Origin: Escherichia coli
GTDB lineage: Bacteria; Pseudomonadota; Gammaproteobacteria; Enterobacterales; Enterobacteriaceae
Direction: 5' to 3' (one strand)
Assembly (NCBI RefSeq): GCF_050920415.1
Contig: NZ_CP169309.1
DNA length: 64,000 nt
The notes under the pieces were generated by a model, which saw only the letters and a program-made list of their open reading frames with translations, was not told where the DNA came from and did not search any database. Position 1 is the first letter of the stretch. Every line of letters begins with the position of its first letter. The position numbers and the translations under genes are program-made. This document shows, piece after piece, positions 1-763 of this stretch.

Positions 1-563
1 TCTGGCATACCATGAGTATTCAGGTCGTTAATCATTTCATCCAGAAGGAGTTCAAGCCCTTCGCGTCCCATAGCAGAAACAATGAAACCATTATCAGGAT
101 CTGCGATGAGCATTTTTTGATAGAGAAACAGAACTCGCCCCATGCCTTCAGCTTCGCCATATTTTTCAATAAATCCCCATTCGACATGGTTTTGCAGGGC
201 AATGCGAAGTGGTCCCGGGTAGATACTCAGGCAACCATGTTTCCCCTTGTAAATAACTGCGCGATCTGTCGTCCCGTTATCGTTAGGGATATTAATGGTG
301 CCGTTCTTGTCTTCCTCTTCACTGATAAATTTCGCTACATACAGCCAGCGCCACTGAGCAACCTTCAGATCGACTGAAAATCTTCCCAGGAATCCGGCAT
401 CATCGGCTTCCGCAATACATTGCATGATTCTTAAACCGTGCCAGTATGGATTGTCGTACTCACCATCATTAAGTCGCTGTACGGCCTCAACATAATCAAT
501 GGTTGTATTGCCAATTTTTATGCCATGTGGCGTAACTTCTGGTTGGAACTCTGAATGATTCAT
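1..563 (-). CDS. Prophage early-region protein of unknown function, 5' part only (runs off window edge; at least 187 codons)
   Basis: Minus-strand frame open from ATG (561-563) to position 1; its ATG overlaps the stop of the upstream 67-aa ORF (ATGA coupling); no family recognised. The antisense track ORF 12..377 was judged spurious. Confidence 0.5.
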   Translation of the reverse strand, partial: MNHSEFQPEVTPHGIKIGNTTIDYVEAVQRLNDGEYDNPYWHGLRIMQCIAEADDAGFLGRFSVDLKVAQWRWLYVAKFISEEEDKNGTINIPNDNGTTDRAVIYKGKHGCLSIYPGPLRIALQNHVEWGFIEKYGEAEGMGRVLFLYQKMLIADPDNGFIVSAMGREGLELLLDEMINDLNTHGMP

Positions 564-763
564 AATGTTTGCTCCTTTGCTGGTGGAATAATCGTGTAGC
601 CTGCTCTTTTTGCCATCCACAGAAATGTATCCATGCAGCCAACGAATTCATTATCCAGCAGATGTTTTGAGTAAATTACTTTTCCATTTTCAATGGTTAG
701 CAACACTCTTACTTTTTCATGTGTTATGTTCAGTTGTTTTTCTTCCATTGACTTATCTCCCAT
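560..763 (-). CDS. Small hypothetical protein (67 aa; may start at internal Met6)
   Basis: Track ORF; translationally coupled to the downstream long ORF; AT-rich accessory context. Confidence 0.45.
   Translation of the reverse strand: MGDKSMEEKQLNITHEKVRVLLTIENGKVIYSKHLLDNEFVGCMDTFLWMAKRAGYTIIPPAKEQTL

Follow-up and report, generated by a model that had tools for sequence, protein, structure and literature searches.

What do the two adjacent leftward genes at the left edge of this stretch of Escherichia coli DNA encode, and do they act as a unit? The stretch (hereafter the window) comprises 64,000 nucleotides (nt) of contig NZ_CP169309.1 (assembly GCF_050920415.1), and a sequence-only reading had described its positions 1 to 763 as a coupled two-gene unit of a lambdoid phage whose products matched no nameable family. 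The genes are orthologues of L07 and L06 of phage phiP27, and we refer to them by these names. The new result reported here is a remote homology between L06 and Cnr, the regulator with which satellite phage P4 restrains replication of its own DNA: comparison of the sequences suggests that L06 is an enlarged Cnr variant, and we infer its function from this relationship. L07 and L06 are otherwise ordinary, widespread and long-catalogued early genes of the phiP27 type.

The gene pair and its start signals occupy the following positions of the window.

1-563, minus strand: L06 orthologue (PHROG 1515), codons 1-187 of 193 inside the window
560-563, minus strand: ATGA overlap of the L07 stop (TGA 562-560) and the L06 start
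572-577, minus strand: Shine-Dalgarno sequence AAGGAG of L06, 8 nt ahead of its ATG and within the end of L07
560-748, minus strand: L07 orthologue (PHROG 340), 62 amino acids (aa) from the ATG at 748-746, the start chosen by the Prokaryotic Genome Annotation Pipeline (PGAP)
757-760, minus strand: Shine-Dalgarno sequence GGAG of the 62-aa L07 start, 8 nt ahead of ATG 748

The ATG of L06 lies at 563-561, and the gene ends 18 nt past the left window edge, with six codons plus the stop outside. We extended the locus leftwards using E. coli MFDS1022581 (NZ_CP169399.1), which shows one single-base difference from window positions 1-3200 in 3200 bases, and the long gene, previously seen truncated, was completed as a protein of 193 aa (WP_047085104.1). 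The ATGA overlap and the 187 codons that the sequence-only reading had reported were both confirmed, but its 67-aa open reading frame (ORF) was probably too long. The sequence favours an L07 of 62 aa, since GGAG precedes ATG 748 and this start is used by PGAP and most homologues; the alternative start, ATG 763 (67 aa), falls within the preceding ORF and is not preceded by a Shine-Dalgarno sequence. The ATGA overlap itself reflects ordinary operon packing. Most genes of this operon are joined by short overlaps (as with the 93-aa and DUF5406 genes), and in PhiR49_2 and the Shiga toxin (Stx) phages Stx1a, Stx2a and Stx2d the two genes are separated by a gap of 5 nt with no overlap.

L06 was 94.3% identical in amino acid sequence to phiP27 P27p06 (NP_543058) over 193 aa and matched phrog_1515 (E = 8e-89 over residues 1-187), and L07 was 95% identical to P27p07 (NP_543059) and matched phrog_340 (E = 3e-24). 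Both PHROGs are families of unknown function, and phiP27 labels both genes 'unknown'. Clustering of the L06 homologues gave 59 clusters at 90% identity and 128 representatives at 50%; profile search found more than 494 clusters of the L07 family, whose conserved core reads IENGKVI...E...TF.WMA.RAGY. Both genes were present in 284 of the 5426 complete E. coli genomes, contiguous in 260 of these 284 and annotated as hypothetical every time. Neither single sequences nor profiles of L06 and L07 gave a match in Pfam, NCBIfam, PADLOC or PDB sequences, and ten longer or divergent family members, inspected for domain fusions, contained no Pfam domains. No sequence or fold similarity connected L06 or L07 to the lambdoid recombination and early proteins (Exo, Bet, Gam, Kil, CIII and N, among others), and the full-length L06 is accordingly no well-known protein of these kinds. 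The earlier statement that neither product has a nameable family thus holds for the curated libraries and fails for PHROG 1515 and PHROG 340, the long-known L06 and L07 of phiP27. The label '2-polyprenylphenol hydrolase', given in some Klebsiella phage records, was rejected, as no such domain was present and all other records read hypothetical.

L06 is an acidic alpha/beta protein (isoelectric point 4.84; net charge -13). Its AlphaFold model was confident, with a predicted local distance difference test score (pLDDT) of 89.5 and a predicted template modelling score (pTM) of 0.84, and it consists in order of an N-terminal beta-meander, two helices, a long helix at aa 64-87, a sheet of three strands (aa 89-114), two helices, a hairpin, a last helix and a disordered yet conserved tail. 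The alignments contained no conserved catalytic-looking motif. The L07 model, a beta-hairpin with one helix, was of low confidence (pLDDT 49-70). Two parts of L06 carry the comparison with Cnr.

303-374, minus strand: helix 3 of the L06 model (aa 64-87) with a WRW motif, aligned by hhalign to the first Cnr helix (aa 7-28)
3-224, minus strand: C-terminal Cnr-like region of L06 (aa 114-193, of which 114-187 fall in the window), formed of two helices, a beta-hairpin, a helix and the tail GMPEAPVTH-COOH, of which GMP alone lies inside the window

Distant L06 members were encountered in elements that encode an integrase along with a primase-helicase and, in many cases, AlpA, and we therefore compared the L06 family with phage P4. 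A hidden Markov model (HMM) built from 91 L06 sequences matched P4 ORF106 (Cnr, DUF5375, PF17345) with E = 1.9e-4 among 3991 six-frame ORFs, and through its positions 124-190 it matched the Cnr ORF in 80 of 80 P4-like viral contigs (18-22 bits). Among 6787 ORFs, the L06 HMM gave 81 matches at E ≤ 1, all of 18-22 bits, of which one, below threshold, was not Cnr and none exceeded 50 bits. The hhalign comparison of L06 with Cnr family alignments returned a probability of 87.5% (E = 3.6e-6; score 37.5), aligning L06 helix 3 and residues 114-179 with Cnr 7-101 and skipping the L06 beta insertion. Five positions that do not vary in the 31-sequence L06 alignment (E128, G136, G140, S163 and G166) carry identical residues in Cnr. 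As controls, reversed Cnr scored 15.6 in hhalign, compared with 37.5 for the true alignment, and 25 column shuffles gave a mean of 10.4 (standard deviation 1.4; maximum 13.6). Among 175 decoy ORFs, comparable scores were obtained in gp34-like proteins only (40.3, 31.6, 30.3 and 24.1), with noise at or below 21. The C-terminus P-[VT]-x-H-COOH is also common to the L06 family (...MPEAPVTH in L06) and Cnr (...IKAPVLH): 17 of 6622 ORFs ended in P[VT]xH, and 16 of the 17 belonged to the L06 family or Cnr. This tail is specific to the two groups and thus lends independent support to the homology. These results make it quite probable that the L06 helical core (aa 64-87 and 114-184) and tail are remotely homologous to P4 Cnr. 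Of the homology and structure searches suggested by the sequence-only reading, the profiles yielded the Cnr link, and the fold search found no relative of the L06 model among solved or viral predicted structures.

The gp34-like proteins of HK97-like prophages (~120 aa) are themselves homologous over their C-terminal 60 residues to L06 aa 123-184 (hhalign 84%, E = 7e-6; HMM E 2e-5 to 0.035). These alignments place L06, P4 Cnr and the gp34-like group in one putative superfamily, with the helical core in all and the P-V-x-H C-terminus in two of the three. The P4 proteins ORF151, epsilon, cI and ORF88 showed no similarity to L06 or L07.

The genomic setting of the distant L06 members points in the same direction. 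P4 has the gene order epsilon (Ash family) - ORF151 - cnr - alpha. The cnr family is situated between epsilon and alpha in 90% of P4-like elements and regulates copy number in the P4 plasmid state (PMC8628076). L06-like genes were found in satellite-like elements with an integrase, often AlpA and/or Ash, and a primase-helicase, at 0-3 genes upstream of the latter. Five such elements carry the L06-like gene at a cnr-like place (L012, L014, L105, L106 and NZ_CP148430.1; three-digit L numbers are our handles for fetched loci). The gene lies immediately ahead of a DUF927 helicase in L106, 13 nt ahead of a TOPRIM/DUF927 gene in NZ_CP148430.1, one gene ahead of the primase-helicase in L105 and L014, and three genes ahead in L012. 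No canonical Cnr was detectable in these five elements, and, judged from homology and position, their L06-like proteins probably act on the neighbouring primase-helicase as Cnr does. The small proteins encoded where cnr would lie in L012, L014 and L105 were rejected as further candidates, with no convincing match to Cnr or L06 models.

The record NZ_CP148430.1 (L109; 12,152 bp, circular), an E. coli plasmid by its label, resembles the circular form of a satellite-type element and contains genes for an integrase, AntA, DUF4222, an Icd-like protein, the L06-like protein (3143-3745), the TOPRIM/DUF927 primase-helicase (3758-6514) and PerC. Klebsiella 'plasmids' of ~37-41 kb with L06 homologues look like circular phage genomes.

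The arrangements of L07 and L06 were determined from HMM scans of all fetched loci. The P27 type has L07 - L06. HK97-like phages of Klebsiella and E. coli have the order gp34-like - L07 - ParE-like domain gene - ~140-aa gene - L06, and in the Klebsiella phages L07 and L06 lie two genes apart; phi467 lacks the ~140-aa gene and has a split L06, and L07 is missing from the HK97-like block of AsXd-1 and L104. Prophages of Salmonella and Klebsiella aerogenes (L006-L011) have gp34-like - L07 - ParE-like gene with no L06, and satellite-like elements and L107 have L06 alone. L06 without L07 was found in L004, L012-L016 and L104-L108, and L07 without L06 in L006-L011 and Fels-1. The coupling described earlier is therefore correct as physical adjacency, and does not extend to an obligate unit, as each gene also occurs alone or, in HK97-like phages, one to two genes away from the other. 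A linker-fusion AlphaFold model of L07 and L06 (mixed paired/unpaired alignment; pTM 0.68; L06 part ~90-97, L07 part 49-70) showed no confident complex, a weak negative that is based on pTM and pLDDT. L07 tends to adjoin genes with a Cnr-like domain, following the gp34-like gene in the HK97 type and preceding L06 in the P27 type. Its distribution suggests that L07 is a separate small protein of a mosaic block rather than an obligate L06 partner, dispensable in many relatives; it may serve as a modulator.

The ParE-like domain gene (PF24732, E = 3e-19; 71-74 aa) overlaps the end of the L07-family gene in HK97-like prophages; in L104 the overlap is with the beginning of the L06-like gene. It was located as follows.

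L006, 5185-5406: ParE-like gene
L009, 5185-5400: ParE-like gene
L003, 3374-3592: ParE-like gene
L020, 3172-3414: ParE-like gene
L104, 708-932: ParE-like gene

No ParE-like gene was found in the window. A role of L07 as antitoxin of the ParE-like gene was rejected, since the latter also occurs without L07 (L004 and L104) and the window has L07 with no such gene.

The position of L07 and L06 within the operon was assessed from their neighbours.

2494-3189, minus strand: S24-type cI repressor, 231 aa, intact in the window
2430-2402, minus strand: sigma-70-like promoter TTGACA-17-TAATAT after the cI terminator, a candidate by consensus match
1887-2348, minus strand: 153-aa helix-turn-helix (HTH) regulator, L10 orthologue
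1491-1718, plus strand: 75-aa ORF (WP_032082696.1), flanked by the HTH regulator and L08 and converging on the leftward operon
945-1151, minus strand: phiP27 L08 orthologue, 68 aa by PGAP, which follows upstream in the conserved block, with PHROG 5451/4587 matches
753-866, minus strand: conserved 37-aa ORF (MTFLKHKASYKTACLIAQHGDSYLHIANLYLRKAYGR), not annotated in the RefSeq record

The leftward operon runs in the order cI, terminator, promoter, 153-aa HTH protein, 75-aa plus-strand ORF, 68-aa gene, 37-aa ORF, 62-aa gene (L07), 193-aa gene (L06), 93-aa gene, DUF5406, DUF4222, 48-aa gene, xis and int. This synteny, leftward of an S24-type cI and upstream of xis and int, supports the earlier assignment of the pair to a pL-operon accessory region. 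The order cI - HTH regulator (L10) - L08 - L07 - L06 - variable cargo - xis - int is common to phiP27, ASU11, PhiR49_2 and the Stx1a, Stx2a and Stx2d phages. Because the genes between L06 and xis vary among P27-type phages and the cI-L10-L08-L07-L06 block is kept, L07 and L06 belong to the conserved promoter-proximal part of the operon and not to its variable cargo.

The 37-aa ORF has AGGAG 8 nt before its start, and its stop lies 4 nt ahead of the L07 start; it is kept in phiP27, ASU11, Stx1a, Stx2d and PhiR49_2, some of which annotate it. The ratio of nonsynonymous to synonymous substitution rates (dN/dS) was 0.07-0.13 for this ORF and, against diverged orthologues, 0.13-0.20 for L06 and 0.12-0.27 for L07; all three are real genes under purifying selection. 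For L06 and L07 the homologue clusters, and for L06 the confident model, also speak against chance ORFs. The adjacent 153-aa HTH protein has an N-terminal domain to which the L08 orthologue is paralogous (BLASTP 45% over 47 aa, E = 3e-11), and, having no HTH, the L08 orthologue may be a truncated competitor or anti-regulator. The 75-aa plus-strand ORF had no family match; given its presence, it may be asked whether the pL-like promoter drives L08, L07 and L06 or whether they have their own promoter. The cI gene in NZ_CP169399.1 is annotated as two coding sequences; at window position 2993, within cI, the window has one extra C. This split is either a difference between near-identical genomes or an insertion/deletion error in the record. 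An Rfam scan of window positions 1-3400 gave nothing relevant, and the composition profile revealed no atypical island.

To bring these observations together, we tentatively favour a reading in which L06 acts in the manner of Cnr by binding a replication protein, with L07 as an independent neighbour. From the studies of Terzano et al. 1994 and Ziegelin et al. 1997, Cnr reportedly does not bind DNA; it is said to bind the P4 alpha initiator/primase-helicase and alter its origin binding, and to block over-replication, with Cnr-insensitive mutations reportedly mapping in alpha. By analogy, L06 would bind a replication initiator or helicase-primase through its helical core and conserved tail and would modulate replication early after induction or infection, and its extra N-terminal 60 residues and beta-sheet insertion might add a second interaction surface. 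The replication module of the prophage (a 302-aa protein with DnaC-like and DnaB-like proteins) lies ~6 kb from L06 on the opposite strand. The 302-aa protein, encoded upstream of the DnaC-like gene, is possibly the initiator; it had no Pfam or PDB match, and a link to the alpha origin-binding domain could therefore not be made.

Several observations weigh against this reading. The Pfam DUF5375 model, which gives P4 ORF106 a score of 210.9 bits, did not match L06 or its relatives even at E ≤ 10, a narrow 31-sequence L06 profile compared with a single Cnr sequence reached an hhalign probability of 5%, and the Cnr alignment used was shallow, with members 90-100% identical. L06 (193 aa) is nearly twice as long as Cnr (106 aa). 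The window prophage has no alpha-type primase, its replication genes being of the DnaC/DnaB type, and L06 is ~46-48% identical between phages with unlike replication modules (DnaB/DnaC versus helicase plus primase). Its retention across differing modules argues against a target among the phage's own replication proteins, and the conservation pattern fits a conserved host or satellite target as well as the phage's own initiator. The adjacency of L06-like genes to primase genes in satellites may simply reflect a single early operon that ends with the primase gene. Literature searches (genes, PHROG numbers, DUF neighbours) found no functional study and no experimental or expression data for L06 or L07.

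The same conservation pattern bears on two other explanations. One, which we consider doubtful, holds that L06 is a generic early-left accessory protein, an acidic inhibitor of a host protein in host takeover, anti-restriction or anti-nuclease activity, or superinfection exclusion, and that its likeness to Cnr is merely a shared protein-binding scaffold. The place of L06 in the early-left operon between the repressor and xis/int is in line with this, as are its acidity, its lack of a conserved catalytic-looking motif, a conserved disordered C-terminal tail that resembles a docking peptide, neighbours that are typical establishment or accessory genes (AntA, Bro-N, pRha, DUF4222, SSB and PerC), and its occurrence in phages with different replication modules. 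However, no PADLOC, anti-defence or exclusion family was matched (L06, L07 and six genes near them gave no PADLOC-DB match at E ≤ 1), in P27-type phages L06 forms part of the conserved promoter-proximal block rather than of the variable cargo, and the sole homology signal is to a replication regulator. No evidence thus emerged for the exclusion or host-takeover role that the sequence-only reading had associated with this region, Cnr being the single functional lead. The other explanation casts L06 as an anti-satellite factor that binds the alpha-, D5- or DUF927-type primase-helicase of resident P4-like or PICI-like satellites, damping their replication on helper induction, so that phiP27- and HK97-type phages would use an enlarged Cnr homologue as a helper-encoded brake; alternatively, satellites may have captured an L06-like gene from phages as their own copy-number control. 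The homology to Cnr, the L06-like genes beside satellite primase-helicase genes in five elements, and the lack of such a primase in the L06-carrying phage itself are compatible with this idea. P4, however, exploits P2-like phages and not lambdoid helpers, and we regard this purely inferential idea as unlikely.

An anti-repressor-like action of L07 and/or L06 on the repressor or the adjacent HTH regulator appears less likely still. L07 weakly matched the C-terminal parts of 'anti-repressor' PHROGs (phrog_4792, E = 1.2e-3; phrog_2379, E = 0.09), the pair lies near the L10 regulator and its truncated paralogue L08, and the neighbouring early gene in P4, epsilon of the Ash family, is an anti-repressor. 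However, the PHROG matches are weak and their labels unverified, the cI here is of the RecA-cleavable S24 type and needs no anti-repressor, and L06 also occurs in elements with no cI-type repressor nearby. The least probable explanation, in our judgement a very remote one, is a toxin-antitoxin or abortive-infection pair in which an L07 antitoxin is translationally coupled to an L06 toxin. It is suggested by the small upstream gene with its 4-nt overlap and by the L07 homologues that lie directly upstream of, and overlap, the ParE-like gene in HK97-like prophages. Against this, no toxin or antitoxin domain was present in L06 or L07 (Pfam, NCBIfam and PADLOC), overlaps are the rule throughout these operons, and the L07/L06 fusion model contained no confident complex. 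The distribution is equally unfavourable: L06 occurs without L07 in satellite-like elements, L107 and AsXd-1, L07 without L06 in L006-L011 and Fels-1, and the ParE-like gene without L07 in L004 and L104, and two genes intervene between L07 and L06 in Klebsiella phages.

The prophage that carries these genes is of the phiP27 type and is integrated in yecE of E. coli. Its integrase adjoins yecE, and a yecE remnant lies at the far prophage end, ~46 kb distant. According to the record annotation, it carries lambda-like head and tail genes and an IS66 insertion, and no stx gene. Further features of the window are listed below.

4773-5435, plus strand: Ash-family protein (Phage_ASH and pRha domains) in the rightward early operon
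about 11389-13977, plus strand: IS66 element (tnpA, tnpB and tnpC), after the RusA/DUF1133 region
about 52265-53245, plus strand: IS621 (IS110-like) transposase gene in the host flank, between ruvB and znuB

As P4 epsilon also belongs to the Ash family, the prophage holds relatives of two P4 early genes. TerB, DUF3927 and IraM genes sit ahead of the lysis genes, and the late region reaches about 43600. The RefSeq record marks a number of lysis and tail genes as frameshifted or partial, and the prophage may therefore be defective or the assembly error-prone.

As found, L07 and L06 are a routine 'hypothetical' pair carried by ~5% of complete E. coli genomes and by many Shiga-toxin phages, and the Cnr link gives the L06 family a functional handle, for which there had been none since phiP27 was sequenced. 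If L06 does bind initiators or primase-helicases, it would add a layer of replication control in Stx phages, where replication drives toxin gene dosage, and a common family of regulators would connect helper phages with their satellites. Should the improbable helper brake exist, it would be a kind of counter-measure against satellites not described so far, with the same family governing the satellites' own replication where canonical cnr is missing.

Compared with known systems, L06 differs from P4 Cnr by ~60 extra N-terminal residues (the beta-meander and two helices), by the three-stranded beta insertion (aa 88-113) and by its place in the window, which is the early-left operon of a temperate phage rather than a position just upstream of an alpha-type primase-helicase gene. 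The gp34-like proteins, exemplified by GP34 of Klebsiella phage KPP5665-2 and AXC33151 of Aeromonas phage AsXd-1, are shorter than L06, differ from it in the N-terminal half and do not end in P-V-x-H. Their genes lie upstream of the L07-type gene, whereas L06 lies downstream of it, and an L07-type gene thus neighbours a Cnr-like-domain gene in both phage types. Type II toxin-antitoxin systems (ParDE) share with L07/L06 a small gene overlapping a larger downstream gene, but the pair has neither their defining domains nor their strict co-occurrence. The lambda pL accessory genes (ral, sieB, cIII, kil, gam and ea) occupy the same map place, leftward of the repressor and upstream of xis/int, and are likewise small and tightly packed. 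They nevertheless have no sequence or fold similarity to L06 or L07, and the window operon, unlike lambda pL, has no N-type antiterminator and begins with an HTH protein. The closest counterpart is phiP27. Its L06 is annotated as 212 aa with a longer N-terminus, it has an extra 'serine protease/lipoprotein' gene (L05) downstream, and the window prophage differs from it in having lambda-like structural genes and no stx; in both, L07 and L06 stand in the same order, in the same operon and in a prophage integrated at the same yecE site.

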